38,544 nucleotides of DNA. Source: a virus (lineage: Duplodnaviria > Heunggongvirae > Uroviricota > Caudoviricetes). Positions 1,950-35,280 of the stretch are shown here, one piece after another. The stretch lies in IMG/VR virus record IMGVR_UViG_2698536428_000019; one strand, given 5' to 3'. Position numbers and translations under genes: made by a program. The notes beneath the pieces were generated by a model. It ran no database searches, was not told where the DNA came from, and saw only the letters and a program-made list of their open reading frames with translations. Positions within the stretch are counted from its first letter, which is position 1, and each line of letters opens with the position of its first letter.

Positions 1950-2311
1950 TATCGACTGAACCCGACAACCGGATAGCGGGGGCTTTCACCCCCGCTGCGG
2001 TTTCTTACTGTTTACACTGCAAGAACGCCGCAAATTCTGACCACATGATGTTAAGTCTGAACTCACACGGCGAACGGTGTATCATCCAGATGGCCAACAA
2101 CATGGTTAAGCATAAAATGCTCACGATGATCGTTTTTTGCAGCATAGCGCTTGACTCCTTTTACAGGGAGGCGCTAACCTTCCACTTGTCTAGGGTAGGA
2201 ATGGTTAGGGCCTCGGGTTAAACAATATGTTTGACTCGGGGCCTTTCCACATCCGGCCTTCAGGTTTTCCTTCCAGCCGTCAGCCGAAAGGCACCCGCGC
2301 GTAATGTACTG
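1950..2311. repeat. direct repeat, copy 2 of 2; abuts the prophage ogr end
   Basis: Same unit as 1478..1835; its right edge encodes the last codons of the ogr-like ORF. Confidence 0.85.
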
Positions 2312-2582
2312 GTTTTAAAGCCATACCGCAATCCTCCAGTTGTAGCGTTAACTGACTGCGTCCCTGATGGGATTTGCGCATTGTCTCCCGTGGAATATCT
2401 TTATCGTGGAAGATCAACTGAGGCTGGCCAATAATTCTGTGCACACTTTCCATTGTTGAAAATGTGGCGCTGCACTCAAGGTTATTGCACTGATAGTATT
2501 TGTAGCGGATGGTGCCGGTATCATTGGCGGCTTTACTGGTACGGATCCGGGCAGATGCGCCGCAGAATGGACAATGAAACAT
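2280..2582 (-). CDS. ogr: Ogr-type zinc-finger late-gene activator (P2 Ogr / 186 delta family), C-terminally extended
   Basis: MFHCPFCG...YYQCNNLECSATF... matches the Ogr C4 zinc-finger pattern; start chosen at the internal ATG with SD aggggg (ORF track starts further upstream). About 100 aa versus about 72 aa for P2 Ogr. Confidence 0.8.
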   Translation of the reverse strand: MFHCPFCGASARIRTSKAANDTGTIRYKYYQCNNLECSATFSTMESVHRIIGQPQLIFHDKDIPRETMRKSHQGRSQLTLQLEDCGMALKPVHYARVPFG

Positions 2583-2626
2583 TGATATACCCCCCTGGCT
2601 GAACTGGGGTTGAACTCGTCGCCATT

Positions 2627-3751
2627 CTAACCATTGCTTTCCTTTTCGGCTATCCACTCGGGTATTCTTGCCTCCAGTTCAAGCCTTGTGGTGAAGCCGC
2701 TTCCGTCGATATTGTGTTCCACTTTTGCAATGAGCCAGTCCTGATTGTCTATTTCGGTTTTAAAGCCGGTTACCGTGCCATGCATTTCAGGGTAAAGCTC
2801 CGCTCTGCCCCGGGCCAGCGTGATGGAGAATTCAGCCGCACCGCGCTGTAATTGCTGCCACCTGGCGGCAGCTGCGCGCTGTGCAGCAATTTCATTTGGG
2901 TAGGTTTTTCTCAGAACGAACACGTTACCTTCTGCCCCCTCCATGTAGCTGCCTTCCCGGCTGCTGCTCTTTTCAGCGTGAGTTTTTCGTTTTTTTATGT
3001 TGACGGCTTTCTTTTTGCCATGATTCAAATCCAGCCAGTACGCCTTCACCCCTGTGTATGCCTGGCGATCGGCTATTCTGAACTGGTGACTGTCTCCGTC
3101 ACTGCGTGCCAGTGCAAATGAGGGGAGTGGGCGCCCGTCAGCTGTCACGCCGCCACCCGGCAGAATGAACAGCAGACAGCCATTTTTGACGGTAGTGATG
3201 GCTCCCAGCATATCAGCCATGCGGGTAAGGAATGACATGTCGCTTTCTTCCGTCTGGTCGGCATGATCGATTTCAATATCCATAAGCATATCGCTTATCT
3301 GGGCTTTCAGTCCGTAACGGTGGGCAATAGCGGAAACCACGCGTTCAACAGTCACGTCGTGCCAGGATACTTCCCGTTTGACGTTAAATTCCTCCCTGAA
3401 GTCTGCGCTGTTTGCACTCAGTGTCAGCCGATCCGGAGGTCCTTCATGAGCGACCTCATCAACAATGTAGGTGCCTTTATCAACCAGAGGCTCTCCCTTC
3501 CATCCCAGCATGACTCTGATGTGTGTTCCCCGCCCGGGGAGAGCCAGCTGCCCGTCGGCATCATCCAGCACAAGAGTGACCCTGTCTGCTTCAAACCCCC
3601 GGTTGTCTGTCATGGAAAGCGATATCACCCGGTTATTCAGTTCCTGAAGAGTGTTTTTATCCTGCTCCCTGTCCAGTGAAACGCTGAAATCAGGCATTTT
3701 CACCAGTTCTTTCAGGGGGGAATAAACCGTGTTACCGTTCAGCAATACCAT
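2627..3751 (-). CDS. phage tail protein D (late control gene D family)
   Basis: 375 aa from the internal ATG at 3751 with SD ggagga; ORF-track start at 4111 is an upstream read-through overlapping the sheath gene. Length and position next to ogr match P2 gpD. Confidence 0.85.
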   Translation of the reverse strand: MVLLNGNTVYSPLKELVKMPDFSVSLDREQDKNTLQELNNRVISLSMTDNRGFEADRVTLVLDDADGQLALPGRGTHIRVMLGWKGEPLVDKGTYIVDEVAHEGPPDRLTLSANSADFREEFNVKREVSWHDVTVERVVSAIAHRYGLKAQISDMLMDIEIDHADQTEESDMSFLTRMADMLGAITTVKNGCLLFILPGGGVTADGRPLPSFALARSDGDSHQFRIADRQAYTGVKAYWLDLNHGKKKAVNIKKRKTHAEKSSSREGSYMEGAEGNVFVLRKTYPNEIAAQRAAAARWQQLQRGAAEFSITLARGRAELYPEMHGTVTGFKTEIDNQDWLIAKVEHNIDGSGFTTRLELEARIPEWIAEKESNG

Positions 3752-10090: not shown

Positions 10091-11431
10091 TCAGGCAATG
10101 CGCTCAAATATTCCGATTCCTGCGCCTGCATAAATGTCAGCGCAGGCCCGCCACGTGCCCGGTGGCCTGCGGTTTGTGTTCCAGTTTTGCATGGATTCAT
10201 AAAAACTGATTTCGAAGTCGGAATTAGTCATGCTCATCAGTCTGAGTTTACTGCCCGGGCGGGTATCTCCGGGCGCTATATTAATTCTGGCAGGATATAC
10301 CCCCTCGGCATCCGTTGCCGCCAGAATAAAGCTGCCCACATCCCAGAGTGTCCGCTGTGTTTTTGCCTGTGCAGCCTCCAGTGCTTGCCGTGCTTTCTGC
10401 CCGGCGTTTTCTGCTGCCGTCATGGCCGTCTTCACAGCTTTTGGTGTGGCAGCCAGCACTTCACTGTCACTGTCCGTTGCGCTGCTTAGCTGAACAATAC
10501 CTCGCTCTGTCAGGGAGGCATCGCCGGTCTGCGTGAGGGGGAGTATGGCAACCTCCTTCCATTCAGACCACGGCCCGTTGCCGGTGAAGTTACCTGTCAC
10601 TGTCCGGATAAATTTTCGTGGAGGATTCCAGGCGGTGTATTCCTGCTGACAGAATCCCCATGCGCCCATCCTGATGGATAATGATCCGGCTGATGTTACC
10701 GGGTAGTGATGCGCAGTGGTGGCTCCGCTGTTGTTGGGCTGATAGTAGTCGCCATGATGTTCAGGTCTTCCCAGTGTATCCAGGTCCACGCTGAGGGCGG
10801 CTGTTGGTCTTGTTACTGCCAGCGCCTTAAGTGCTTTTATTGCTTTGGGTGTGGCTGCCCGGGTTTCATCATCACTGTCGGTTTCACTACTGAGCTGAGT
10901 AAATCCCTTACTGGTGGTTGTGGCATCCGGGTGTTTACCGTTTTGTTCATGCTGCTTTATCATTTCTGCCACGCCAGCCTGTGTTGCCATGGTGGTTGAT
11001 GAGTCGGCTGTCAGATTTACAGAGGCTTCGTTGCTCAGCAGAATCACCATGCGGAATACCTGTTCTCTGCCTGAGCCCTCATCAAGCTGCGGTTTGTAAC
11101 CTTCCGCAACATTACCCACGGCGATGAGTGTGCCTTTGCTGTCAAACAGACCGATTTCGCGGATCCAGAATCCTCCTTCATTCGCAGGAATGATCACTTC
11201 GGCGGTTAAAAAACTGGTGTTTTCCGCGTCACGGCTGACCCTGCTGACCTCGCCCCGCCAGACCTCTTTAACGAGAGCGGTTTGCGTGGCCAGTGGTTCT
11301 GTGGGTTTACCGTTACCGTCTCCGACGGCGATATGTGTCAGCGTGATCTTTTCTCCATCCGGTAACACCGCAGCTGCGAGGGCTGCTGTTCCGGCATTTG
11401 TGATAATGGTTTTGTATTTTGCGGCCATCAT
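10091..11431 (-). CDS. tail fibre protein (P2 H homolog)
   Basis: N-terminus aligns with P2 H (GGFW.RE(I/L)GL.D..GTLIAV.N.AE.YKP...EGSGR); internal repeat ...GFTQLSS.TDSD.E..AATPKA(I/V)K... Confidence 0.9.
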   Translation of the reverse strand: MMAAKYKTIITNAGTAALAAAVLPDGEKITLTHIAVGDGNGKPTEPLATQTALVKEVWRGEVSRVSRDAENTSFLTAEVIIPANEGGFWIREIGLFDSKGTLIAVGNVAEGYKPQLDEGSGREQVFRMVILLSNEASVNLTADSSTTMATQAGVAEMIKQHEQNGKHPDATTTSKGFTQLSSETDSDDETRAATPKAIKALKALAVTRPTAALSVDLDTLGRPEHHGDYYQPNNSGATTAHHYPVTSAGSLSIRMGAWGFCQQEYTAWNPPRKFIRTVTGNFTGNGPWSEWKEVAILPLTQTGDASLTERGIVQLSSATDSDSEVLAATPKAVKTAMTAAENAGQKARQALEAAQAKTQRTLWDVGSFILAATDAEGVYPARINIAPGDTRPGSKLRLMSMTNSDFEISFYESMQNWNTNRRPPGTWRACADIYAGAGIGIFERIA

Positions 11432-12054: not shown

Positions 12055-12943
12055 CGGTGCCACCTGCAGAGATGTTCCGGGATGTGCAGCGGGCTGACTG
12101 GGTGTTACTGATCACCACATTCTGCGCTGGTTTCTTCAGCTCGACTCGCTGAACGCCCGGTACGTGTAGCGTTGCCATAATGGCAGAGCGGGCCACATCA
12201 CGTCCTATGGCATTCTGAGTTTTCAGCCATGTGTCAAGTGCATTTCTGGCGGCGGCAAGAATGGGTTCGGATTCCGGGCCCGGATAAAAATAGAGTACGG
12301 CCTCAATATCGTAACTGACGATGGTCGCACTCTGTACCGTGAGTCTGTCGGCCAGGGGGCGCACAGTTTCATCATTGAGAGCCCGGCTGACGGTCGCGAT
12401 TAATTCCGGTGACGCTGTGCCGTCTCCTTCCGTTGAGAGAATGGAGACAATGACCGTCGCAGGTGACGGACTGGTTGCCCGTGCATCGGCAACAAGACCG
12501 CTGGCACTGCGGGCAAAATATTCATATGCAGCAGAGGGGCCTGCGACGCTGAAACCTTCAAATCCGGATTGTGCCCGCAGACGGAACGCGCTGTCGCTCT
12601 CCATGATGGCAGCTTCTGTATCAGTAGCAGGTTTCAGTTCAAGGCGTTTCGCATTCACGATAGCGGCGAGATTATCCAGGTCTGTGGATACGGCATGGCT
12701 GAGCATGCACCCCGCCGCTGCATCGTTGATCCGCTGACGGAGCAGCATTTCGCGAAAGGCGATGGCCTGAGCAATGATGTTGAGTGGCTCTGATTCCAGC
12801 GCAATGGCTGCGCTGACGGCACTGCGCATGTTTTCAGGGAAGGCATCAATCATAAAGGCCTTCACGTCTTTCAGTATGCTCTCATAATCCAGTGATTCAA
12901 TGATCTGCGGACGTGGTAACTGAGACAGGTCAATTGTCGGCAT
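12047..12943 (-). CDS. baseplate assembly protein J homolog
   Basis: 298 aa, size and position between W and I; overlapping stop/start coupling. Confidence 0.88.
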   Translation of the reverse strand: MPTIDLSQLPRPQIIESLDYESILKDVKAFMIDAFPENMRSAVSAAIALESEPLNIIAQAIAFREMLLRQRINDAAAGCMLSHAVSTDLDNLAAIVNAKRLELKPATDTEAAIMESDSAFRLRAQSGFEGFSVAGPSAAYEYFARSASGLVADARATSPSPATVIVSILSTEGDGTASPELIATVSRALNDETVRPLADRLTVQSATIVSYDIEAVLYFYPGPESEPILAAARNALDTWLKTQNAIGRDVARSAIMATLHVPGVQRVELKKPAQNVVISNTQSARCTSRNISAGGTDE

Positions 12944-13295
12944 TACTCCCCCTCAGCGGAATGCTCATCTGTACGGGCTGCATTGTGCGGGTGAGCACGC
13001 CTGAGATGGCCAGCAGAGCGCGTCCGTCAGGCAGCCAGGCGATATCCACCCGGTTAATGGCGATCCGGGGCTCCCACTGTGCGAGCGCCATAACCACCGC
13101 GCTCATGCACTGCAGACGCGTCACGTCGTTTTGTGGCGCATCGAGCAGTTCAGGTAACAGGCTGCCATACTCTCTTCGCATGATGCGACTGCCGCGCGGG
13201 GTGGTCAGAATATTGTTTACAGAGTGGCGGAGGTGTTCTGTGTCACTGATGCATCCGCTACCATGCGGGTTCATGCCTGTGCATACCGGTGTCAT
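12930..13295 (-). CDS. baseplate protein W homolog (gp25-like)
   Basis: ...TP.GSR.MRR.YGSLL..... matches P2 gpW. Confidence 0.88.
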   Translation of the reverse strand: MTPVCTGMNPHGSGCISDTEHLRHSVNNILTTPRGSRIMRREYGSLLPELLDAPQNDVTRLQCMSAVVMALAQWEPRIAINRVDIAWLPDGRALLAISGVLTRTMQPVQMSIPLRGSNADN

Positions 13296-13888
13296 TTCGG
13301 CCCCCCTGTCATGCTTCCGCCGGACTGAACACCGTTATGAACGTGCGTATGCACGGTAACACCATTTGAGAGTAAGTTTCCGTTACTGTGTGTGATATCC
13401 CCTTTCATGGTGCCACCGTCAGTCAGTTCAAACGTCCTGGCCTTCAGATGTTTTGTGCACTCTACGGCCGGTGTGTCCAGGGTAATACGTGTTTCCGCAG
13501 AGATCTCTGCGGTTTTGATTCCTTTCACCGTCAGCGCGCCTTTTTCTGCGTCATAGCGTATCTCGGCACCGTCAGGTGCAAGGAGTATCACTTCATTCTG
13601 TTTTGTGCCGGGCGCCGGGTGTTCTTCGCTGTAGAGACTGCCAGCCACAACGGCCATTTCAGGACTGCCGCCCGGGCAGAGCAACAGCACCTGTTCACCG
13701 GGGGAGGGGGGCAGCCAGATTTTAAACGCCCCGGCGCGTGTGCAGTTCCAGCGGAGCCAGTCCGTTGTCAGTCCGCCGCTGGTAGCGCGAATGCGCCAGT
13801 TTTTCAGATCCACCTCCGAAACGACGCCGGTGCGGACCATGTTTTCCAGCAGTCGCATGATTTCAGCATTCAACGGGTGTTTCTCCAC
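13292..13888 (-). CDS. baseplate spike/assembly protein V homolog
   Basis: TDWL.W..RAG, GEQVL.L..GG and HTH.H motifs align with P2 gpV. Confidence 0.88.
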   Translation of the reverse strand: MEKHPLNAEIMRLLENMVRTGVVSEVDLKNWRIRATSGGLTTDWLRWNCTRAGAFKIWLPPSPGEQVLLLCPGGSPEMAVVAGSLYSEEHPAPGTKQNEVILLAPDGAEIRYDAEKGALTVKGIKTAEISAETRITLDTPAVECTKHLKARTFELTDGGTMKGDITHSNGNLLSNGVTVHTHVHNGVQSGGSMTGGPK

Positions 13889-14514
13889 AGGTTGTTGATA
13901 ATGATTTCCGTCACTTTCTGTCTGTCGGCTTCACTGAATCCCAGCAGTTCGCGTTGCGGATAGCGGACGGCATTACCGGCAGAGACCAGTGACACTTCGC
14001 CGAACTGATGAACGCGGGCAATGCGGGCTGCGCGGCCTTCAAATCCCACGCTGACGCCGCCGGGATCGGTTTTTACCTTCAGAAAGCGGTTTGTCCGAAG
14101 CTGCTCAAACATGGGTGGACGCTTAATGGCGCTCTGCGTTCGCCTGCGGGTGTCAATTTCCAGGTATTCTTCAATATCGGCTTTGTGGAACGAGCGTATT
14201 CCCCGGCGCTCCGTGTCGTAACCGGTGATCATGGGGCCGTACCGGCCGGTTGTTGTCCGCCAGTTTTTCAGTCGTCTCACCTGAGTGCCGTTCCAGATGA
14301 ACACCACACCTGCCTGGACACGGAATACACGTTTTTTACGGGCGGGCCACCGGTTACCGTCCGGTGATTGTTGCGAACGTATACGCTTTTGTTGCGCGGC
14401 GCGGACAGCCTGACCGACAGCACGTGCTGTTTTGTTTATACCGGCAGCGGACAGACCACTGAGGATCTCCTGAAAGAGACCGTCCAGTCTGTGCAGGTCA
14501 TCCGGAGCCATCAT
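13870..14514 (-). CDS. virion morphogenesis / tail completion protein (P2 S-like)
   Basis: Start chosen at the ATGATG overlapping the R 3' end; the ORF-track start at 14616 would overlap R extensively. Confidence 0.7.
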   Translation of the reverse strand: MMAPDDLHRLDGLFQEILSGLSAAGINKTARAVGQAVRAAQQKRIRSQQSPDGNRWPARKKRVFRVQAGVVFIWNGTQVRRLKNWRTTTGRYGPMITGYDTERRGIRSFHKADIEEYLEIDTRRRTQSAIKRPPMFEQLRTNRFLKVKTDPGGVSVGFEGRAARIARVHQFGEVSLVSAGNAVRYPQRELLGFSEADRQKVTEIIINNLWRNTR

Positions 14515-14965
14515 TCTGACCCCATGTGACATCTTCGAGGGTGACGTGCCATGCTTCCAGGGCCCGGCTGACAGGCGGCTCTCCGATGTGTTCTGCGTGA
14601 ACAGTGCCATCATCATTACGGCGGATAATCACCCGCTCCCATACCGGGATTTCCAGCAGGATATCGGTGCTGTCGTCGTCATTGATGGCAACAGAAAATT
14701 TGATATCCCTGTTTTTCTCCGGATTAAGCAGGAGATCAGGCTGATTGCGGTACAGCCAGCGCATCAGCGGCACCATCAGTTCATCGAGATCCTGCGTGAA
14801 GTCCATGACAAAGATCCCAAGCGTGTAACGGTAAAGATATGAGGGGGATTCGCCGGTCGTCTCAATGCCTCCGTTATTCACATACACAGTGAATTTCTCC
14901 GGGTTGGCGCGACACCATGGGCAGGCGTCAGTCATGGCGTCGCGCAGGGTGTTAATTTTCAGCAT
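14498..14965 (-). CDS. tail completion protein R homolog
   Basis: 155 aa, same size and position as P2 gpR upstream of S and V. Confidence 0.8.
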   Translation of the reverse strand: MLKINTLRDAMTDACPWCRANPEKFTVYVNNGGIETTGESPSYLYRYTLGIFVMDFTQDLDELMVPLMRWLYRNQPDLLLNPEKNRDIKFSVAINDDDSTDILLEIPVWERVIIRRNDDGTVHAEHIGEPPVSRALEAWHVTLEDVTWGQNDGSG

Positions 14966-14980: not shown

Positions 14981-15154
14981 TTATGGCATGTTCTGGTTGT
15001 TCTGTTGTGCAGACTTCTGACTGATTTTTTCAGCGGCGCGCTCGTCAATTTTTCGCTGAAAATAATTTCTGATAACACTGTAACCGCCGCTGATCAGATA
15101 CAGCGCGCAGACTGCAGTACAGAAATACAGCATGATCTGATGAATGAATAACAT
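14981..15154 (-). CDS. small single-pass membrane protein (57 aa), unknown function
   Basis: MLFIHQIMLYFCTAVCALYLISGGY then a basic tail; ATG preceded by SD gaggtg (the ORF-track start at 15169 lacks an SD). Confidence 0.45.
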   Translation of the reverse strand: MLFIHQIMLYFCTAVCALYLISGGYSVIRNYFQRKIDERAAEKISQKSAQQNNQNMP

Positions 15155-15299
15155 AATCACCTCACACAAATGATTGACATAACGATGTCTGGCGTTTTAA
15201 AAAAATGAATAACAATAATAAACACTCTCCATAATTCCTCTTGCGCTCCCGTCAGGTATCTTCTCCTCTAAGTCTTGCCTGCCGGGAGCCTCTTTTTTC

Positions 15300-17345
15300 T
15301 TATGCGGCGTTGCTGTTATTGATATCCACCGTCACATACTCAATCAGCACGGGGTAGGTGTCCTGGTTACTGGTGATATCCGTGATCAGCAGTTTGTCGT
15401 TATCCAGTCCTGCCGCCGGGCATTTCGCCAGATTAAAGGCCGCCTGGGTCTGACCGTTGATGACCGGTGTCACGCTGATGCTGTTATTTCCGGCAAACCG
15501 GAACACCACGTTGTGCCAGTTATGATTAAATGCCCCGAAGGTTCCCAGTTTTGCATTCTGTTGTTTGTGCTGCATCAGATTCAGGTTTGCGCTGTCGCTC
15601 TGGATGAAGAAGGCTGCCAGCATATTGTTTCCTGTGCTTCCCTCCGGAACAACGTTTTCAGGTAGCTGAGAAACCGGCCAGTACAGAGCCATGGCGAAGC
15701 GGTTTTCTGCCAGCTGAACACCTTCCGGGATTTTGAAACGAAAGGCAATTTCCCCGCCTTTCTGAAGTAATTCAGTTGCTTTACTTGCAGGCACATCGTG
15801 GGCGATTTTCCAGGCTGTTTGTTGCCCCTGGACTTTTTCCACTCGCACGGCTTTACCGCTCTCAGCAGCAGAGTCATTTACGACGGAGGCTTTTCCATCT
15901 GCCCCTGTCCAGCCCTGTTCTTTCAGTTTCCCTTCCTGTGCGTCTGCGCGATAAGCGACGGCCGTTGTTCTTGCCGGTGATGACTGCGTACCTGCGCCCG
16001 GCTGAGGTGCAGGTGTGGAGGGCTGCGGGCTTTCCGTGGTGGTGCTGTCTGAACCGGCCGTGGCTGGAGGTGCTGCGACCACGCTGAACGGTGCGGGTGC
16101 ACCTTTCAGGAAGGCGACGGTCTTCCCGGCATGCATCAGGATCGCCGTTGCCAGGCGGTCAGAAATAATGCCGCGGCGGGCCCATGAACTGAAATGCGTG
16201 GCGCGATCTGAAGAGGTCCAGTTTCCGTTACTACGGGATGCAGCACCGTAATAACCGGCTTCTGCCAGGTCAGGATCTTCGGCAGGCAGGTTTGTTGGCG
16301 TGTTAGCACCTTTCTCATCGGTCATCAGGGGCACAAAATAAATTTTTTGCGCTTCTTTGTTCTGATATGCACCGTAAACCACCGGGTACTGAGAGGTATA
16401 TTGTTGTTTCCAGATATAGGTGGTATCGCCGCAAATCCAGGGAACAAGTGATGCGTTGCCTCCGGTGCACTGTGCAGCATATGCGCTGAGATCGGCGCGG
16501 AACTGATTCACCATGTTCAGGAATAATTGCGGGTACTGTGCGTATGTTGCTGATTTCAGATCAAACTCTCCCAGCATCCAGACCACGGATAACAGGACGT
16601 TTTTGGGGTTTTTATCCAGCGCGGCTTTTGTACGGGTAAGCAGATCGTTATACAGCGGTTTGCCGACGCCCCACAGGGATGATTCGGCCGTTGCTCCTGA
16701 AGATTCACTGAATGCCCCCTCAGCGCCGGAAGTAAGCGCTGACCCTCCACGACAGCAAGGTACCAGGAGGATCCCTGCATTTTTCGGGATAAACGCCAGT
16801 AATTTTTTGGCAATATGTAAACCCTGTCCGACGCAGCCATACTGACCTTTTGACAGATCGGCGTTCGGATGATTAAGGCTGCTCATATCCTGTACATCAT
16901 GGAGACAGTGATCTGCCGGAATAATATCGTTATAGGTACATGCAGCGCCGCCCGGTGTTACCGTACTGCGACGCGCTAACTGTTTAATTCGTGGATCAGG
17001 ACTGTCGAATGTATCGGGTAATGGCAGCCCCTCACCGTATGCCATGCCATTGGACTGACCAGCCAGTGGCACCACATAATAAAACTCTGGCTCAGTTGTG
17101 TGTCCAGTGTCGTATCCGTCGGTAGTGCCCGGTACGGGGTTTTCCTCGCCTTCTGGTACCGGAATGGCTGATGGCAGGTCTCTGTCAGTGACCAGTGCCT
17201 GCATCAGGTAAAATGGTGCTCCCGGCTCTGATGCTGAGACAGGTCCCCCAAGAAGTCCCCATCCTTCCCTGAGCATGGGCGCAAGTTTTTCGGCAAGTTC
17301 CTTGTTCGTCATTGCCGTCACAAGCTGATAATGTTTCGGTACCAT
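15300..17345 (-). CDS. nanS: NanS-p-like sialate 9-O-acetylesterase (DUF1737 N-terminus plus SGNH/SASA-type esterase domain), prophage cargo
   Basis: 681 aa from the ATG with SD ggag (MVPKHYQLVTAMTNKELAEKL...); architecture matches prophage-encoded NanS-p esterases of EHEC prophages as recalled. Confidence 0.75.
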   Translation of the reverse strand: MVPKHYQLVTAMTNKELAEKLAPMLREGWGLLGGPVSASEPGAPFYLMQALVTDRDLPSAIPVPEGEENPVPGTTDGYDTGHTTEPEFYYVVPLAGQSNGMAYGEGLPLPDTFDSPDPRIKQLARRSTVTPGGAACTYNDIIPADHCLHDVQDMSSLNHPNADLSKGQYGCVGQGLHIAKKLLAFIPKNAGILLVPCCRGGSALTSGAEGAFSESSGATAESSLWGVGKPLYNDLLTRTKAALDKNPKNVLLSVVWMLGEFDLKSATYAQYPQLFLNMVNQFRADLSAYAAQCTGGNASLVPWICGDTTYIWKQQYTSQYPVVYGAYQNKEAQKIYFVPLMTDEKGANTPTNLPAEDPDLAEAGYYGAASRSNGNWTSSDRATHFSSWARRGIISDRLATAILMHAGKTVAFLKGAPAPFSVVAAPPATAGSDSTTTESPQPSTPAPQPGAGTQSSPARTTAVAYRADAQEGKLKEQGWTGADGKASVVNDSAAESGKAVRVEKVQGQQTAWKIAHDVPASKATELLQKGGEIAFRFKIPEGVQLAENRFAMALYWPVSQLPENVVPEGSTGNNMLAAFFIQSDSANLNLMQHKQQNAKLGTFGAFNHNWHNVVFRFAGNNSISVTPVINGQTQAAFNLAKCPAAGLDNDKLLITDITSNQDTYPVLIEYVTVDINNSNAA

Positions 17346-17355
17346 AGTGACTCCG

Positions 17356-17631
17356 TTATTTTTCATGAGTGTTCATTCGTGCTGTCCGCTGCCGCTCCAG
17401 CCCGGCAATGGCGGCTTTATCGGCATTACAACTGTCCAGGGCATCTACCAGTCGGTCTCCCCAGTCAGCCACATCAGCCCATATCATGTGTTGCGGCAGC
17501 ACCGGTACCGGTGTCTGTCTGGTCAGACTTTCCGGCACGCTCCCGCAAATGACGCCGGTTTTCAGCGGCGCTGGCGTGTTGTTGCAGGCTGTCAGCAACA
17601 TCAGCAGGGGGAGGAGTGCGTGCGCACTCAT
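17356..17631 (-). CDS. o-spanin lipoprotein (Rz1 / LysC-like)
   Basis: MSAHALLPLLMLLTAC: signal peptide with lipobox; overlaps the 3' end of the i-spanin gene in another frame. Confidence 0.7.
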   Translation of the reverse strand: MSAHALLPLLMLLTACNNTPAPLKTGVICGSVPESLTRQTPVPVLPQHMIWADVADWGDRLVDALDSCNADKAAIAGLERQRTARMNTHEK

Positions 17632-17899
17632 CCGCCTGTAAGTTTTTCCGCATCGTTTCACGTCGTTCTTCCCCTCTGGCTGCACGCTCCTGATCTTCGC
17701 GCCGGATAGCGGCCAGCGCTGACTGTGTCTCCGCCGTGGCCTTAAGCAACTCCCGGACGGTCGTATTGCTCTCTTTCACGGCTTTTTCCAGCGCTTCATA
17801 ACGGGTGCTCTCCTGACCTGAGCGATAGGCCCGGATGACCACCATTGCCTGCAGCGAAATGGTCAGCAGCAGCGCACAAAGGATAATGTTCAGTTTCAT
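17474..17899 (-). CDS. i-spanin (Rz / LysB-like)
   Basis: MKLNIILCALLLTISLQAMVV N-terminal TM followed by a charged coiled-coil region; ATGA overlap with the endolysin stop. Confidence 0.75.
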   Translation of the reverse strand: MKLNIILCALLLTISLQAMVVIRAYRSGQESTRYEALEKAVKESNTTVRELLKATAETQSALAAIRREDQERAARGEERRETMRKNLQADECARTPPPADVADSLQQHASAAENRRHLRERAGKSDQTDTGTGAAATHDMG

Positions 17900-18447
17900 G
17901 GCTGCGCTCCCGCGTCTTTCAGGCACCAGTTCTTAAAATCATTCCGGCGGTTAACCAGTCCCTGCGTGCGCGTTCCGCCACTGTTCACAAAATCTGTCAG
18001 CCGGTAACACATGAGGCGCCATTGCCGTGTCTGCGCGTGTTTCCAGATGGTGGTGCGTTGCGGCGTGCCGTTTTTGTTTTTAAACCACATCAGATTCCGG
18101 CAGCCCAGGTTAAAGGCGGCGTCCGTCATGGCTTCGAATGCAGACTGCGGCATCTGCTGCCCCCTGAAATTCTGTGTGATGCAGTTCTCAGCGCGGCGCA
18201 TATCGTTGATCCACCGCCCGGCCACTTCCTCCTGTGTGTACAGGCGGTTTTCCACGTTACCGGTGGATCCGCATCCGACCGTACCGACCCCCACCAGATC
18301 ACGGTAGGGTCGGGCCCGGCACTCCTCCCATGTGGCAATTTTGATTTGTGCCTCGCGGGAGGTTCTCAGTTCTCCGGGAGCCAGGGAGATCCCCAGCGCC
18401 ACAATGGCGGCCACGGCGTAACGCTTAGGTCCGGCCATCGTGCTCAT
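17896..18447 (-). CDS. endolysin, T4-lysozyme-like, probable SAR (signal-anchor-release) type
   Basis: Hydrophobic N-terminus (YAVAAIVALGISLAPG) followed by an E...D...T lysozyme core (EECRARPYRDLVGVGTVGCG); resembles phage 21-type SAR endolysins. Confidence 0.8.
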   Translation of the reverse strand: MSTMAGPKRYAVAAIVALGISLAPGELRTSREAQIKIATWEECRARPYRDLVGVGTVGCGSTGNVENRLYTQEEVAGRWINDMRRAENCITQNFRGQQMPQSAFEAMTDAAFNLGCRNLMWFKNKNGTPQRTTIWKHAQTRQWRLMCYRLTDFVNSGGTRTQGLVNRRNDFKNWCLKDAGAQP

Positions 18448-18721
18448 CCTGCTTCAGAAGCATCATTGCCCGGCGCTCTGCGTCGTTCAGCTCCCTTCCT
18501 TCTGACTGCATAAGGATTTTTTCAATCAGTTCGTTGCGCCTTGCCTGGGCGATCTCCATCCTGCGGCGGTGAAGCCAGGCACGAAGCAGTGACAGCGTTC
18601 CCAGCACAAAACCGGCCACGGCAATTTTTTCGCTCAGCGTCATCACGCCGATACCGGCTGTCGTCACTGACGCCCAGAACGTGATGTGATCACAAAGCCG
18701 CTGAAACATTCTCACCCCCAC
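18425..18721 (-). CDS. holin (possible dual-start holin/antiholin)
   Basis: 98 aa with two hydrophobic segments; N-terminus MGVRM has two Met separated by a basic residue; sits between X and the endolysin. Confidence 0.65.
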   Translation of the reverse strand: MGVRMFQRLCDHITFWASVTTAGIGVMTLSEKIAVAGFVLGTLSLLRAWLHRRRMEIAQARRNELIEKILMQSEGRELNDAERRAMMLLKQDEHDGRT

Positions 18722-20348: not shown

Positions 20349-21449
20349 TTATGCTTCGGGTTGCGGCTGTCCGCTTTCGGCGTTGTTGTCCGGATCTTCA
20401 CCTGCGAAGGTGATCCCCTCAATCAGCGCGCATTTTCCGTAGTCTTCCACCACGTAGCAGTCATTCATGGACTGGTAAGTCGCGATACGGTTGTATTCCG
20501 GCTCCTCGCGAATGAAACGGCGCAGTGAGCCTTTCTGGAAGTAGATCGACAGGTTTTTCAGCGACGTGATGAGCATGGCGTCTTTCGGGAAGTACGGCGC
20601 AAGATACGTCTGAAGACCACCGACGGTACGGGACGCCACAATCAGCTGCCCGGCAACAAGCTCAGTGTTCGGGTTGGTGGTGCTGATGGCGTTAATCATG
20701 GGAAGACGCAGTGTATTGAACAGATCCCGCCCCATCAGTACGACCAGATCCGGTGCGTCCTTATGCCATTCATCCAGCACGGATGAGCGGATGTCGTGCA
20801 CCATGGCATCCGGGTTACCATAGTCACCTTTTGCCACCAGTTTGTTTTCATCATCGCGACGGGTCAGGGTCATCCCTTTCACCACGCGGGTGGCTGCCTT
20901 GTCGCGGATGTGTTTCAGCCAGCCCGGGTTGACGTCCTGCAGGAGAGGGTTGGTGGCACGATCGGAAATCAGCGCGTGTGACTCCCCGTTGAAACCAATC
21001 ATGATTCGATCCAGGGCTATCTGGCGGGTGATTTGCGCGCTCAGCAGTTGCTGAAAGTTTTTCTGGCTGCTCCATGCGTCAATCTGTGCGTAGCTGATGA
21101 AGGTATCGTAGTTCACCTGCTCGCAGCGGTAACGGCGTGCAGCCAGATCAGCAACTGATGCAGGGTTGCGGCGTTTCACTCCGTCGCTCGTTGCGTTCGT
21201 GCTGGCAATGGGGCCGCTGGTGTCAATCAGGACTTTTTCACCTTCCTGGTCATCCACACCGATAAAATTGATTTCCTGTAACAGTCCGGCGCTTTCCTTG
21301 ATGGCGTTCTCCATCTTCTGCTGAATGGATGGATCCACGCCGAAGGTTTTACCCAGGCGCTCTGTTGTGATACCAGCCAGCGATGCCTGCTGAATCATAT
21401 AGCGTTCCAGACTGTCACGTCCTTCACGGGAAAGTGATAAACGGGCCAT
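20349..21449 (-). CDS. major capsid protein N homolog
   Basis: 366 aa; N-terminal region aligns with P2 gpN as recalled. Confidence 0.9.
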   Translation of the reverse strand: MARLSLSREGRDSLERYMIQQASLAGITTERLGKTFGVDPSIQQKMENAIKESAGLLQEINFIGVDDQEGEKVLIDTSGPIASTNATSDGVKRRNPASVADLAARRYRCEQVNYDTFISYAQIDAWSSQKNFQQLLSAQITRQIALDRIMIGFNGESHALISDRATNPLLQDVNPGWLKHIRDKAATRVVKGMTLTRRDDENKLVAKGDYGNPDAMVHDIRSSVLDEWHKDAPDLVVLMGRDLFNTLRLPMINAISTTNPNTELVAGQLIVASRTVGGLQTYLAPYFPKDAMLITSLKNLSIYFQKGSLRRFIREEPEYNRIATYQSMNDCYVVEDYGKCALIEGITFAGEDPDNNAESGQPQPEA

Positions 21450-22375: not shown

Positions 22376-22393
22376 TGTATGGCGACGGGGACA
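22376..22393. promoter_or_regulatory. Ogr-type late promoter dyad TGT-N12-ACA between divergent O and P
   Basis: TGTatggcgacggggACA; centre about 22384.5 versus midpoint 22381 between the O ATG (22303) and P ATG (22459). Confidence 0.45.
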
Positions 22394-25291: not shown

Positions 25292-25306
25292 GACTCTCCA
25301 GCTCTC

Positions 25307-25810
25307 TTAACGGAATGCGGATGGCGTTCTTCTTTGCAGCTTGCTGATAATATGTATCTTCATGCTGTTTACTATCGGCAGCCATTCCCTGTCACCGTCT
25401 CCGTTGATGACCACGCGAATGGAGGTATCATCTTCCACGCGAACCCGAAGAGATACACCGTCTTTTCCGACGGAATGTAACTCCATTGCCAGGACTATGT
25501 TTACCGACTCTCCTTCATCGTGTGAGTCAACCCATGTTCTTACAGCCATCCGGAATATGTTATCTGTGTCGGTTGCAATCATATTTACCGGAAATGGCCT
25601 GAAGTCCCGATCGTTTCTGCACGGAAACCCCGTATCAACGTAACGATGATGCTCGCCGTCTTTGTCTTCCCATGTCTCTGAAGGCAATTCCAGCCACTGC
25701 TCATAAAAAGCAACCAGCTTTTCAGCCTGATTGCGCAGAATCCCTGTAACCTCCCGCCTCGCGTCCCGGCTCTTTTTGTTTGCCAGGTACAAATCGCGAA
25801 AATGGCTCAT
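25307..25810 (-). CDS. hypothetical protein (167 aa) in the portal-cos accessory slot
   Basis: ORF with SD aaggag 7 nt upstream of the ATG; soluble, acidic; no family recognised by eye. Confidence 0.6.
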   Translation of the reverse strand: MSHFRDLYLANKKSRDARREVTGILRNQAEKLVAFYEQWLELPSETWEDKDGEHHRYVDTGFPCRNDRDFRPFPVNMIATDTDNIFRMAVRTWVDSHDEGESVNIVLAMELHSVGKDGVSLRVRVEDDTSIRVVINGDGDREWLPIVNSMKIHIISKLQRRTPSAFR

Positions 25811-26293
25811 GTCGCTCTCCTTTGGTCTGTTTATGCCAGCCTGTATTCTGCGCTCACCTCATATTGTGCGCAAGTTTTCACCCGTGAATGACTGATACTT
25901 TAAATTCTATTAACTTTATGATTTCAGTGATTTTTGTCTCTCTTTTTTATCCCGTTCGTCACGTCCGTTTCCCTCCCGATCTCCGACCTCGCCAGACGCA
26001 ATCAGACGCATTCTGACGGCCTGTTTCCCTGACCATGTTTTGATGTGGTTTTTCAAAACTGGCTTCACTGCGCGCGTATCATGCGCAATACGACCCCAAA
26101 TAAAGCAACCTGCCTTCCACCCCTCAATTCGTGCGCCCTTCCCTCGTCGCCTGCGCGCTGCAATTGCCTCGTTTTTCGTGCACCGTGCAAAGTGGCTTCA
26201 GCCCGCGCCGTTACTGGGCTGAGTGGGGATGAAACACATAAGAAAAATTGTGCAATTTCGTGCACTTTTGTGCAGTTTGAAACGGGTATCTGT

Positions 26294-26323
26294 TTGACAC
26301 TGGTACTTACTTTGCGCTAACTT
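26294..26323 (+). promoter_or_regulatory. candidate sigma70 promoter (TTGACA-18-TAACTT) driving the leader and membrane-protein gene
   Basis: Perfect -35 hexamer TTGACA at 26294..26299; a three-fold 10-bp-phased GTGCA repeat lies immediately upstream. Confidence 0.35.
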
Positions 26324-26484
26324 TACTCGACCAGAAATTTCAATGAATCGGATGAGGTTGTTTGTCATACGACCTCGGTTAGCTAGGTTGCCTTAATCAA
26401 AAGGCATGTTTGATACTGGAGGAGGTTAATATGAATAAAGCATTTGACGAATTTGATGGATTCTGAATGTGTTAACCTCGATAA

Positions 26485-26510
26485 GGCGGAGACTGATCTC
26501 CGCCTTTTTT
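26485..26510 (+). terminator. intrinsic terminator/attenuator 15 nt upstream of the membrane-protein gene ATG
   Basis: GGCGGAGA-ctga-TCTCCGCC followed by TTTTTT. Confidence 0.6.
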
Positions 26511-26524
26511 ATTGGTAAAGAAAT

Positions 26525-27028
26525 ATGGCTATGGACTCAGTAACGATACAAATCATTAGCAATATGATAGTCCTGTTTGGTGTCATTGTTGCTATCTGTA
26601 CAATTATCTATAACGTTCGTACGGCAAAAAAAACACAAACCGCTAATTTTTTATTTGAAAGTCGCCAGGATAAGGAATACCTGGAATCATTACATCTCCT
26701 CAGGAGAATTCATCGCTCAGGGAAATCGTTTCGTGCTTATGTTTTTCCTTGTGAAGGCGGGGCTATTACGGAAGAGGAGATGACCGAACGTCGCAAGTTT
26801 CAGTACATTCTTAACTTTTACGAGAGAGTTGCAGTTAGTATCCGTGAAGGTATTTATGATGAAAGGATGATCAAACGAACGTCCTTTACAACGATTATTA
26901 CAACTTATGATATTGCAGAACCCCTGATTAAGGCTATCAGAGAAGATACTCAATCAAAAACAGCGTACCAGGAGTTTGAATGGCTGGTAAAACGATGGAA
27001 AGCTCGTCCTCTTGATAGGGATGTGTAG
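26525..27028 (+). CDS. membrane-anchored hypothetical protein (167 aa) in the old/tin position; candidate defence or exclusion gene
   Basis: N-terminal TM helix (IQIISNMIVLFGVIVAICTIIY) then a roughly 135-aa charged domain; visibly AT-rich; same orientation as P2 old/tin; weak RBS. Confidence 0.65.
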   Translation: MAMDSVTIQIISNMIVLFGVIVAICTIIYNVRTAKKTQTANFLFESRQDKEYLESLHLLRRIHRSGKSFRAYVFPCEGGAITEEEMTERRKFQYILNFYERVAVSIREGIYDERMIKRTSFTTIITTYDIAEPLIKAIREDTQSKTAYQEFEWLVKRWKARPLDRDV

Positions 27029-27043
27029 TTTATTTCTTGCATT

Positions 27044-27070
27044 AGAGCGAGGTTATTGGTGCCTCGCTCT
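27044..27070. terminator. hairpin between convergent membrane-protein gene and SSB-like gene
   Basis: AGAGCGAGG-ttattggtg-CCTCGCTCT, 9-bp stem. Confidence 0.4.
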
Positions 27071-27075
27071 TTAAA

Positions 27076-27393
27076 TTATCGAGCCGTTCTTGCGCTCATG
27101 ATGCTTTGCGCCAGCAACTGCCAGCCCTCTTTCTGTTGCCCGCGCTTGTCCTGATACCTGTTTACCTGCAAGTTTCCGTGCACCAGAATCAGATCGCCTT
27201 TTCTGTGTTTTGCCAGTTCTTCGTGCTGCTTCCCGAATGCAATAAGGTAAAGCCACATTGTGGTTGGCTGTTCTGCGCCATGGCAGGGTAGTGATACCGC
27301 CAGTTGTGCCGTTGTGACGTTGGTTCCTTTGGTTGTTCTCCTTGTGTTCGGGTCTGCTGCCAGTCGTCCCTCTGTTGCAACCTGTGTTGGCAT
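27076..27393 (-). CDS. small SSB-like OB-fold protein (last gene of the early operon)
   Basis: 105 aa; pattern resembles the E. coli SSB OB-fold (..W..V.F.GK.AE......KG....(V/I).G.L) without the acidic C-terminal tail. Confidence 0.5.
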   Translation of the reverse strand: MPTQVATEGRLAADPNTRRTTKGTNVTTAQLAVSLPCHGAEQPTTMWLYLIAFGKQHEELAKHRKGDLILVHGNLQVNRYQDKRGQQKEGWQLLAQSIMSARTAR

Positions 27394-33261: not shown

Positions 33262-34236
33262 TCACGGGTGAGCAGAGGTAAACATCGCGCTGTACGTTGC
33301 ATCTCCCGTCGCCGGGCCGCAGTCCGGGCACCAGCCACCGCCATGGCGACCGCAGGTGTCGCACTGCTTCAGGGTGGCGATAACTTCCATTGCGGGTTCA
33401 CTGGTTCTTGCGCCAACGCTTCGTGGTGCCTGTATGCAGTTCATCCGGTAACCCTGATAAATGCGTCTGGTTTCCGGTGTGTCGGAATTGGAGATGGTGA
33501 TGCTGGTCATGCCGCCCGTTTCCTGTGAAAGGCGGTCAAGCGCTGCTCTCAGGCGAATGTGGTCGTCCTTCGTGAAGGGTTTTCCATAGGCGGTGAAATT
33601 GTCCCGGCCACTGAATGGCAGGTAAGGGGGATCGCAGTACACGCAAAGCGTGTTACCCATGCTGAACAGGTGGCTGGCACAGCTCAGCGTTTTTCGAAAA
33701 TCGCCATGAACAAGCAGCGTTTGGGTGCTGTTTGCCTTGTCTGCAAATGCGCGGATTTCCCGCTCAGGGAAGTAGGGTTTTCGGTAGCCGCCGAAAGGCA
33801 CGTTAAAATCACCTTTTCCGTTCACCCGGTACAGGCCATTAAAACAGTGCCGGTTGAGGTACAAAAACATGGCGGCCAGTCGCAGTTCACGGCGGTCGCT
33901 TATTCCCGTGCTCAGGAATGCATGATTCTCTGCATTAAAGGTGTTGCGGATGGCGAGATAGTCAGCCCTGTTGTTATGTTCCAGGAACAGGTCTTTTGCC
34001 TCATCGATCAGGCTGTCGGTGTTGTCCCGTGCTGCCCGCCAGAAATTAATCAGCGCACCGTTGGAATCTCCAAGGATGCAGCGGCTGTAACGGGTGTTCA
34101 TGAATACCGATGCGCCACCCACGAACGGCTCAACCAGGCAGTCAGCTTCTGGCAGGTGCGCCTTCAGTGTGTCCATGATGCGGTTTTTTCCGCCCACCCA
34201 TTTCAGCGGTGTGCCGGATAACAGTTTTTCGCTCAT
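33262..34236 (-). CDS. dam: DNA adenine methyltransferase (Dam-like) with Cys-rich C-terminal extension
   Basis: Motif I (EPFVGGASVF) and catalytic DPPY (VYCDPPYLPF); C-terminus contains CDTCGRHGGGWCPDCG. Confidence 0.85.
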   Translation of the reverse strand: MSEKLLSGTPLKWVGGKNRIMDTLKAHLPEADCLVEPFVGGASVFMNTRYSRCILGDSNGALINFWRAARDNTDSLIDEAKDLFLEHNNRADYLAIRNTFNAENHAFLSTGISDRRELRLAAMFLYLNRHCFNGLYRVNGKGDFNVPFGGYRKPYFPEREIRAFADKANSTQTLLVHGDFRKTLSCASHLFSMGNTLCVYCDPPYLPFSGRDNFTAYGKPFTKDDHIRLRAALDRLSQETGGMTSITISNSDTPETRRIYQGYRMNCIQAPRSVGARTSEPAMEVIATLKQCDTCGRHGGGWCPDCGPATGDATYSAMFTSAHP

Positions 34237-34459
34237 AACGCGGCCTCTCTGTTATAGGTTTCGTGCGTTAATAAATCCCATGACTTCCCGTTGTTTTTGC
34301 TCAGTAATCGCCAGCGAAAACCGATTCTTATGACCAGGTAGTCGTGGGGCTTTATGCGTGAAAAATTCCGCGCTCCGTTGCGAAATAAGCGCAGAGACGT
34401 GCGGGCTTTTGTTTCCACGTTCAGGGGGGGCGGCAACGCATATTCAGGATGGCGACCAT
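34233..34459 (-). pseudogene. small gene disrupted at a G7/C7 homopolymer (frameshift or phase-variable)
   Basis: SD gaggtg plus ATG at 34459 opens a frame that stops after 12 codons just past the homopolymer at 34424..34430; the frame coupled to dam by ATGA (34233..34436) has no ATG; adding one C would join them. Confidence 0.45.
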
Positions 34460-34468
34460 GGCTTCACC

Positions 34469-35050
34469 TCATATGTTCAGGAATGGTGTTGTGAAGCGCT
34501 GCCAGATTTCTGACACGACCTTTGCCTGGTAAACGGCGTCGCCCAGCGCGGTGTGAGCAATGGTCTCTTTGCCTGATCGGCCTGGCATTCTCCAGCCGGT
34601 TGATTCAGCCATGGCGATAAGCGGACGCATACAGCGCTCGTCCCAGTAGCACCAGGGGATGCTTTTTTCTCCGGCTGTGCGTGTTATGGCGGATTTCAGG
34701 ATTGGGAAATCGAAGGATGCGCCTTTGCACCATATGGTCAGTGAATTGCCCAGGCTTTCGTCATGCATATTGCGTGAAATGAACGCCAGAAATTCGGTCA
34801 CTGCTGCCAGCTCTGTTCCATCTGCGTTGCGCAGGCAGGCTCTGGCTTCCACGGATTGTCCGGCCCACCATACAGCGGTGGCTGCATTGACGGTTCCGCC
34901 GTTGCGTTCTGAATCCACCGGGTCGATGAATTTCTCAAACTGCTTGCCCAGCTTTCCGGTGAACGGGTCGAAAAACACCGCCCCAATCGCGAATATGGCT
35001 GCGTCCGGTCCGTTACCCAGTGTTTCGGTGTCAATCATGAGATGGTTCAT
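34469..35050 (-). CDS. 3'-5' exonuclease (DEDDh / DnaQ-like)
   Basis: MIDTETLG (exo I motif) and HTALGDA (DEDDh motif); start at the ATG overlapping the upstream stop (TAATG). Confidence 0.8.
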   Translation of the reverse strand: MNHLMIDTETLGNGPDAAIFAIGAVFFDPFTGKLGKQFEKFIDPVDSERNGGTVNAATAVWWAGQSVEARACLRNADGTELAAVTEFLAFISRNMHDESLGNSLTIWCKGASFDFPILKSAITRTAGEKSIPWCYWDERCMRPLIAMAESTGWRMPGRSGKETIAHTALGDAVYQAKVVSEIWQRFTTPFLNI

Positions 35051-35280
35051 TATGCGCACCCCTTCAGTTCGTCTGGGTTGGCGAGTATTGCAATCAGTCG
35101 TTCAATGGCTGCGCAGGTTTCCTGTGGACAGGTGTGTGTCTCTTTCGCTGTCTCAGTCAGCTCGCGCAGTAATTCGCAGATATGTGCACGCTCGGCTTTT
35201 CTTGCGGCCATGCTGATATGCGCATGATGGTTAGCTGGTCTGGCGGTTATTTCTCTGCCGGGTGATTCGGCTGTTCTCAT
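35050..35280 (-). CDS. hypothetical protein (76 aa)
   Basis: Start chosen at the ATG with SD caggag. Confidence 0.45.
   Translation of the reverse strand: MRTAESPGREITARPANHHAHISMAARKAERAHICELLRELTETAKETHTCPQETCAAIERLIAILANPDELKGCA

Follow-up and report, generated by a model that had tools for sequence, protein, structure and literature searches.

A NanS-p-family esterase gene as an accessory cassette of P2-like prophages, with an N-terminal domain that co-diverges with the head genes

The DNA analysed here (the window; 38,544 nucleotides (nt), IMG/VR virus record IMGVR_UViG_2698536428_000019) holds serS (1-1293) and, next to it, a complete P2-like prophage with hok/gef and ogr at one end and the integrase at the other; among the late genes of this prophage lies nanS-p, a gene for a protein of 681 amino acids (aa). 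The gene encodes an apparently active, full-length sialate O-acetylesterase of the NanS-p family with intact catalytic Ser and His residues, and genome comparisons indicate that the phages can do without this accessory cassette, which some of them carry and their close relatives lack. Its N-terminal domain, DUF1737, is shown by domain comparisons to be specific to P2-like backbones and to co-diverge with the head genes. The reading that we favour, with a probability of roughly 0.55, is that of a late-expressed, dispensable esterase-lectin module that is probably either held on the P2-type capsid by a tether or set free when the cell lyses.

Until now NanS-p has been regarded as belonging to Stx and other lambdoid prophages of enterohaemorrhagic Escherichia coli, and here it is a common accessory of P2-like prophages. 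The enzyme family is known; new are the virus family that carries it and its genomic position, and the anchor domain is of a distinct subclass. The combination is undescribed in the literature that we searched, in which no account of NanS-p on P2-like phages was found, a 2026 survey of 5945 P2-like genomes included.

Architecture and predicted activity of the esterase

The gene lies in a single long open reading frame (ORF) on the minus strand (15300..17366 in the ORF list), and its likely start is the ATG at 17345, which stands 10 nt after the lysC stop with a GGAG 5 nt upstream and is also the RefSeq start in a 99.9% identical E. coli locus. The product consists of three domains joined by two linkers, delimited in part by an AlphaFold2 (AF2) model and its predicted local distance difference test (pLDDT) scores.

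15300..17345, minus strand: nanS-p-like gene, 681 aa plus stop, with DUF1737, NanS-like SASA esterase and lectin-like DUF6645 domains (Pfam, PHROG_143, PDB 3PT5/6YP6)
17178..17345, minus strand: DUF1737 domain, aa 1-56, P2-type subclass with the motif SEPGxP[FW]YLMQA (Pfam, neighbour-joining tree, AF2)
17091..17177, minus strand: linker 1, aa 57-85, Pro/Glu/Thr-rich, lineage-specific, without an SSP motif (alignment, motif search, pLDDT <50)
16131..17090, minus strand: NanS-like SGNH/SASA esterase domain, aa 86-405 (3PT5 alignment)
15969..16130, minus strand: linker 2, aa 406-459, Pro/Ser/Thr-rich, with an SSP motif at aa 455 (motif search, AF2 model)
15303..15968, minus strand: lectin-like jelly-roll domain DUF6645, aa 460-681 (Pfam, 6YP6, AF2 pLDDT 80-93)

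Pfam positions are given in the numbering of the 688-aa ORF and all other residue numbers refer to the 681-aa protein. DUF1737 (PF08410) was matched at 11-60 with 31.4 bits against a cut-off of 24, SASA (PF03629) at 170-295 with 42 bits (cut-off 24.8) and DUF6645 (PF20350) at 534-650 with 136 bits (cut-off 27). All variants tested passed the three thresholds, the DUF1737 domains of other P2-like alleles scoring 27-38 bits. PHROG_143 matched from end to end (E=2e-293), no NCBIfam model matched the protein, and sequence searches of the PDB aligned aa 84-404 with chromosomal NanS/YjhS (3PT5, E=3e-118) and aa 460-676 with the C-terminal domain of phi24B NanS-p (6YP6, E=9e-60). Ser98 in the block I motif GQSN (codon 17052-17054) and His384 in the motif RATH (codon 16194-16196) align with the Ser and His of NanS; the histidine block has been reported as RSSH or RASH (AIMS 2023 paper). 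A preliminary description, made from the letters of the window, had proposed a full-length NanS-p homologue with a DUF1737-like N-terminus and an esterase domain, and these matches bear it out, with no sign of another hydrolase family or of a truncated core.

The four positions of the proposed lectin binding site of 933W (Y510, Y515, Y540 and F611) correspond to F550, Y555, F580 and L647 in the window protein, which is thus aromatic at three of the four. No signal peptide is evident. The full-length AF2 model is moderate (pLDDT 65.9) and for this reason the geometry of the active site was not taken from it, the sequence alignment to 3PT5 being used instead. The catalytic domain is 96-98% identical in aa to the lambdoid alleles P0030-P0039, from which activity on Neu5,9Ac2 and the O-acetylated sialic acids of mucin is predicted.

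The N-terminal domain follows backbone and head type

The DUF1737 domain of the window shares 34-40% identity with lambdoid and 47-90% with other P2-like versions. When neighbour-joining trees were built for each domain separately, every DUF1737 from a P2 context fell into one clade (47-90% identity within it, 20-43% to lambdoid sequences), and the esterase and lectin domains from both backbones interleaved. The P2 clade is marked by a beta2-beta3 loop 4 residues longer than the lambdoid one, with the motif SEPGxP[FW]YLMQA. In a blind test a protein of unknown context (P0098) was put in the P2 clade by its N-terminus alone, and its gene was then located between lysB and DUF1378-R of a P2-like prophage. 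A scan of IMG/VR with the P2-type domain alignment returned loci that were P2-like in 36/36 cases, four of them with frameshifts or deletions. Among the P2-like lineages DUF1737 identity correlated with that of the major capsid protein (MCP; rho 0.71), the head-completion protein L and the scaffold O at a Spearman coefficient of about 0.7, as against 0.3 for R and 0.09 for the esterase of the same gene, values that are descriptive only because the 36 pairs are non-independent.

In lambdoid phages the variable esterase-lectin segment sits between DUF1737 and the head genes. 933W (Sepvirinae, L057) and BP-4795 (Marienburgvirus, L058) are 97% identical in the esterase and 99% in the lectin and only 59% in DUF1737; BP-4795 and YYZ-2008 (L054), which have the same head type, are 98% identical in DUF1737, 71% in the esterase and 31% in the lectin. 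The nanS-p genes of lambdoid Stx phages are thus domain chimeras too, in which each DUF1737 matches the head type of its own phage. The loop sequences are distributed as follows.

Loop STAGYGAEFIQ: 933W-type heads, 7/7 cases including phi24B
Loop SYDDNGMKIIQ: GpA-707 terminase with fused ClpP-MCP and cement protein, 2/2 cases
Loop AITPYTLMQ: Pankow/Marienburg-type heads, 3 cases
Loop AITPYTLMQ: true lambda heads, 2 cases

If DUF1737 is a capsid adaptor, one would expect just what is seen here: an N-terminus that follows the head module across very different backbones, and an enzyme and a lectin that are freely exchanged. The backbone comparison is a separate line of support for a claim that otherwise rests on one cryo-electron microscopy preprint.

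Exchange of the esterase and lectin domains with lambdoid prophages

The rest of the gene has a different history, as is apparent from a tract shared with lambdoid prophages.

15096..17094, minus strand: recombination tract comprising the esterase from about aa 85, linker 2, the lectin, the spacer and the 5' part of the DUF1378 ORF (blastn, megablast)

This tract is 96.5% identical in nt to lambdoid prophage L005 and 93.7% to L002, both of which have 933W-type head genes, and the homology breaks off abruptly at both ends. In the protein aa 86-681 are 95-98% identical to lambdoid alleles and aa 1-60 only about 35%. The sister P2-like locus L004 shows the reverse pattern: its identity to the window protein is highest in DUF1737 (90%) and falls to 85% for the esterase, 71% for the lectin and 42% for linker 2, and its cassette is 62-78% identical in nt, similar to or slightly below the backbone genes (77-88%). 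From this it appears that nanS-p is ancestral to both lineages, having probably been present already in their common ancestor, and that a recent exchange with a lambdoid allele took in the 3' 2 kb in the window lineage. The alignments show that this exchange happened, and we infer that it ran from lambdoid to P2-like. The idea that a lambdoid esterase was fused onto a stand-alone P2 DUF1737 gene at the lysC|R junction was rejected, the domain being fused in 36/36 IMG/VR loci, and when the N-terminal 60 aa were run with HMMER against 1.84 billion representatives, only truncated or frameshifted nanS-p fragments came back and no stand-alone DUF1737.

A small ORF travels with the gene in most contexts.

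14981-15169, minus strand: DUF1378 small ORF of 57-62 aa between nanS-p and R (Pfam DUF1378, 94.8 bits; PHROG_494)

A DUF1378 ORF (55-64 aa) lies 3' of nanS-p both in lambdoid prophages and in the majority of the P2-like lineages (the window, L002, L005, L004, L009, L049, L050, L052 and L060-L062), and none follows nanS-p in the P88-like type (L012). The lambdoid tract ends within the ORF, which behaves as part of a mobile nanS-p cassette.

Distribution of the cassette

The window locus occurs at an identity of at least 98.9% in 12/5426 complete E. coli genomes. Three more diverged P2-like lineages have a DUF1737-SASA-DUF6645 gene at the identical junction, which makes four in all; the three are the L003/L004 lineage (protein P0064; backbone 77-88% identical in nt to the window), the L009 lineage (E. 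coli G1/2 and relatives, 16 genomes) and a P88-like lineage (L012, PV468777 and vB_EcoM-705R2), and L049 is a further P2-like locus with nanS-p at the same site. In phage P88 lysB/lysC are followed directly by R and there is no nanS-p, and some 93 bp of P88, from the 3' end of lysC to the 5' end of R, are replaced by about 1995 bp in L012, a difference suggestive of homologous exchange among P2-like phages and not of insertion at a specific site. A probe for the P88-like junction was covered to at least 80% in 376 genomes, indicative of a filled site, and about 663 genomes matched its lysB/lysC half only, as expected of an empty site like that of P88. The L004-type junction was absent from complete E. 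coli genomes. Altogether nanS-p is found at the P2-like site in about 404 of the 5426 genomes (~7%), which implies that the ecological reach of NanS-p is wider than the literature suggests. The preliminary description had regarded the gene as an extension of lambdoid cargo to a new backbone; at this frequency and in at least four P2-like lineages, it is not a rare one. Filled and empty sites in near-identical P88-like phages, together with the natural chimeras, provide a natural system in which to ask whether it is the phage, the lysogen or both that benefit from NanS-p.

Proteins of this kind are named 'DUF6645 domain-containing protein' in RefSeq, and the cluster at an identity of at least 90% has 744 member sequences. 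A P2-type DUF1737 of the subtype TA[ST]APG[AT]PFYLMQA was seen in a partial Salmonella enterica protein (P0002) and in IMG/VR locus L047, where a 747-aa esterase lies beside a P2-family MCP and the host is not known. These two sequences hint at a spread of nanS-p beyond E. coli, and as contig scans of one genome per species, with the N-terminus and with the P2-type alignment, gave no matches, they are all that points to it.

In the P88-like IMG/VR loci L032, L043, L046 and L048 nanS-p is frameshifted or deleted in frame to 218-286 aa, and in phage 2851 (L055) it is split into two coding sequences, so that the gene seems to be decaying in some prophages. One might therefore regard it as a functionless relic of recombination with lambdoid prophages, a view with which the frameshifted and internally deleted copies and the truncated fragments common in databases agree. 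We consider this most improbable for the window, where the gene is complete and no catalytic or fold element is missing; the size of the cluster to which it belongs and the persistence of the gene at one site in P2-like lineages that share only 57-92% backbone identity at the protein level argue in the same direction.

Carrier strains are diverse and include commensal, extraintestinal pathogenic and Shiga toxin-producing E. coli, and no link of carriage to particular O or K types was found. This bears on the possibility, raised in a 2021 review (PMC8065619), that the enzyme, on the virion or set free at lysis, modifies receptors, deacetylating O-antigen, capsule (e.g. O-acetylated polysialic acid) or other glycans and thereby exposing receptors or keeping progeny from adhering to debris. 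Receptor-binding, receptor-destroying proteins usually pair a lectin with an esterase, and the gene adjoins lysis and tail genes. However the catalytic domain is very close to that of NanS (E=3e-118), an enzyme that acts on 9-O-acetyl sialic acid in free or mucin-bound form, and the lambdoid NanS-p enzymes act on mucin O-glycans (review PMC8065619); together with the diversity of the carriers and the missing tie to O or K types this makes receptor modification an unlikely function.

Placement in the late operon

On the minus strand the gene order is X, holin, lysozyme, LysB, LysC, nanS-p, DUF1378 ORF, R, S, V, W and J. The features that bear on placement and late expression are as follows.

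22376..22393, strand not assigned: TGT-N12-ACA dyad in the O/P divergent intergenic region, the nearest upstream on the late strand (pattern search)
20349..21449, minus strand: major capsid gpN of the P2 family (RefSeq; PF05125 in sister loci), proposed docking partner of DUF1737
18425-18721, minus strand: holin (PHROG)
17896-18447, minus strand: lysozyme (PHROG)
17474-17926, minus strand: lysB, DUF2570 (PHROG Rz-like spanin match, RefSeq)
17356..17926, minus strand: span of lysB with the embedded, Rz1-like lysC, whose stop is at 17356 (PHROG, RefSeq)
14498-14965, minus strand: tail completion gene R (PHROG_65; PF06891 in sister loci)
13870-14616, minus strand: tail completion gene S (PHROG_26; PF05069 in sister loci)
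2280..2657, minus strand: Ogr/Delta zinc-finger late activator (PF04606, 57.5 bits; RefSeq)

The preliminary description was right to place the esterase gene between the spanin genes and R on the late strand and had overlooked the DUF1378 ORF (14981-15169) that precedes R. Its Peduovirus-type backbone needs a similar correction. The P2 hallmark genes are present in the P2 module order (Q, P, O, N, M, L, X, lysis, R-J, I and H), as are tail sheath and tube, D, ogr and int (RefSeq on the 99.9% identical locus; PHROG), a P2-type C repressor and a Cox-like protein, and the prophage is a P2-like member of the Peduoviridae; the closest phage records are P88-like (Xuanwuvirus) at about 72% nt identity and do not belong to the genus Peduovirus. 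A DNA search of phage records found none with this esterase locus.

The TGT-N12-ACA dyad is an element of Ogr-dependent late promoters in P2, and the pattern search found no such dyad inside or flanking the nanS-p cassette. Consensus scans of the coding strand beside nanS-p found neither a sigma-70-like promoter nor an intrinsic terminator-like site. With a gap of only 10 nt to lysC and no promoter, terminator or dyad of its own the placement of the gene argues against independent expression, and late-only transcription with the Ogr-dependent genes would follow from it. The spacer 15170-15299 (minus strand), which is inside the lambdoid-derived tract, contains an inverted repeat (GCTCCCG...CGGGAGC, about 31 nt apart) with a T-rich run farther on; it is not a canonical terminator because the loop is too large.

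A possible tether to the capsid

In phage phi24B the NanS-p homologue gp84 has been described as a virion protein, hexamers of its DUF1737 plugging the central hexon of each T=9 face via the loop residue Tyr42 and its esterase and lectin being cleaved off after release from the cell, with the SSP motif as the processing site by manual suggestion of the authors (bioRxiv 10.64898/2026.04.10.717836). Binding of the phi24B domain to the capsid suggests a virion-linked role for the window protein rather than that of a simple moron. An AF2 model of aa 1-60 (pLDDT 87) consists of a beta strand (5-11), an alpha helix (14-26), a second strand (30-38), a loop (39-45) and a third strand (46-53); the aromatic residues F45 and Y46 stand where the beta2-beta3 loop ends. 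The predicted fold fits the description of the domain in the preprint. Sequence searches of the PDB found no solved DUF1737 structure on which the model could be superposed, and in a Foldseek search with the model nothing reached significance, dodecin coming first at E=0.24.

By extension from phi24B, the P2-type DUF1737 would tether the esterase and lectin to the gpN capsid, perhaps only for a time until proteolysis sets them free. As no signal peptide is evident the esterase would leave the cell on virions or at lysis, and once outside it could strip O-acetyl groups from the sialic acids of mucin, which would help the phage to handle mucus and feed surviving lysogens. A wider proposal, which we put forward tentatively and hold to be somewhat less probable than not, is that DUF1737 is a modular, head-type-specific capsid anchor behind which esterase-lectin payloads are swapped and that P2-like phages display or shed these payloads from gpN hexons. 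If true, this would be a phage counterpart of the viral haemagglutinin-esterases for moving through O-acetylated gut mucus, and the N-terminal subtype would predict head type across Sepvirinae, lambdoid siphoviruses and Peduoviridae.

Several points weigh against a tether. In the T=9 capsid of phi24B gp84 binds only the flat face-centre hexons (bioRxiv 10.64898/2026.04.10.717836). The capsid of P2 is T=7, and T=7 capsids are not known to have a hexon of this kind. Capsid binding is reported in a single unreviewed preprint, virion carriage of the esterase in any P2-like phage would be by analogy with it, and esterase activity, substrate and expression are predictions from sequence only. The window protein has SSP at aa 455 in linker 2 only and none in linker 1, and 933W has it at aa 57 and 414. 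A strict one-to-one map of DUF1737 subtype to head type was rejected, the loop AITPYTLMQ occurring with two head types, so that the mapping is strong and not one-to-one. Finally, recombination mechanics alone could hold the N-terminus to its backbone without selection: in P2-like genomes the N-terminus is the gene end nearest the head genes, and because the upstream flanks of P2-like and lambdoid genes are non-homologous, crossovers must fall in the conserved esterase. The lambdoid chimeras, with the variable segment intervening between DUF1737 and the head genes, argue against such simple linkage.

The other main explanation is that the gene is plain lysogenic-conversion cargo, as the preliminary description had called it. 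Here the esterase would matter to the bacterial population alone: spontaneous lysis of a few cells would free it and the surviving lysogens would grow on the de-O-acetylated sialic acids, DUF1737 having no capsid role in P2-like phages and its divergence reflecting lineage history. The accessory status of the cassette agrees with this (376 filled and about 663 empty sites), as do its presence/absence polymorphism, its slightly lower GC content (about 0.50 against 0.56-0.59 in the flanks) and the ability of recombination mechanics to keep an N-terminus with its backbone. However a gene that abuts lysC in mid-operon, and beside which the scans found no promoter or terminator-like site of its own, is not placed as independent cargo would be. 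Induction of P2 prophages is rare, and it would probably be so here, the prophage carrying a P2-type C repressor without a peptidase domain. Lambdoid NanS-p enzymes are active and permit growth on Neu5,9Ac2 (review PMC8065619), as the cargo explanation would have it, whereas the phi24B protein is a virion component (bioRxiv 10.64898/2026.04.10.717836). Nor would the cargo explanation account for a 56-aa domain that stays intact in every lineage and that varies with head type in lambdoid phages even though a variable segment lies in between. We consider lysogenic-conversion cargo the less likely of the two main readings and rather doubtful, and prefer that of a late module that is tethered or set free at lysis.

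Other features of the prophage

An island of low GC content at about 25300-27100 (0.43-0.47, compared with about 0.55 in the rest) separates the portal gene from the genes for single-stranded DNA-binding protein and replication, an interval that is a classic cargo hotspot of P2. It encodes a DUF4760 protein (26525-27028) and an ORF without a family match (25307-25810), and PADLOC scans of the island gave no matches. Two genes for hok/gef-family toxins lie at about 1530-2150 between serS and ogr (RefSeq on the near-identical locus), and P88 has a hok/gef gene in the equivalent place. Extra accessory genes in the early region (33262-35059, minus strand) encode a Dam-like DNA adenine methylase, a ParE toxin-like ORF and an Rv2179c-like 3'-5' exoribonuclease. 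The tail-fibre gene (10091-11431, minus strand) is an intact 446-aa ORF in the window, and in the otherwise 99.9% identical prophage of SCU-106 (L001 16028-17032) it is annotated as pseudogene fragments. In L049 an IS200/IS605-family element (12244-13933) with a TnpB-like OrfB and a Y1 transposase interrupts the baseplate J/I region.

Comparison with known systems

The closest relatives of the window protein are the NanS-p proteins of lambdoid and Stx phages (933W L0105/z1466; phi24B vb_24B_21, that is gp84), with which it shares the DUF1737-SASA-DUF6645 layout, the GQSN Ser and the RxxH His, an esterase and lectin up to 98% identical to alleles of prophages with 933W-type heads, a following DUF1378 ORF and a position in the late region beside the lysis cassette without a signal peptide. 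It differs in that its carrier is a myovirus of the Peduoviridae and in that its DUF1737 falls in a separate clade with a longer loop. The order relative to the lysis genes is reversed, the lambdoid gene sitting between Q/stx and the holin and the window gene after the spanins and before R, and late control is by Q antitermination in lambdoid phages and would be by Ogr here. With phi24B gp84 in particular the window protein has in common a helix and three antiparallel strands (as predicted here), aromatics at the loop end, Pro/Ser-rich linkers and an SSP before the lectin; the capsids differ, a T=9 podovirus capsid as against P2-type gpN, and linker 1 of the window protein is without SSP.

Chromosomal NanS (YjhS, 3PT5) has a homologous catalytic domain with the Ser and His aligned. 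Unlike the window protein it is a single-domain enzyme of the nan regulon without DUF1737 or lectin and is not phage-borne, and it has a signal sequence.

The haemagglutinin-esterases of influenza C and betacoronaviruses combine on the virion a lectin with a Ser/His sialate O-acetylesterase and bind reversibly to O-acetylated sialoglycans of mucus. They are an analogy only, belonging to enveloped animal viruses, with a membrane anchor in place of the proposed capsid-binding domain and no demonstrated common ancestry. Nearer to the P2 capsid, Psu of P4 binds the centres of gpN hexamers, and in T4 the capsid-displayed domains of Hoc mediate adherence to mucus. No relation in sequence or fold to DUF1737 has been shown for either, and the likeness is that P2-type gpN hexamers can accept a decoration protein bound at their centre.

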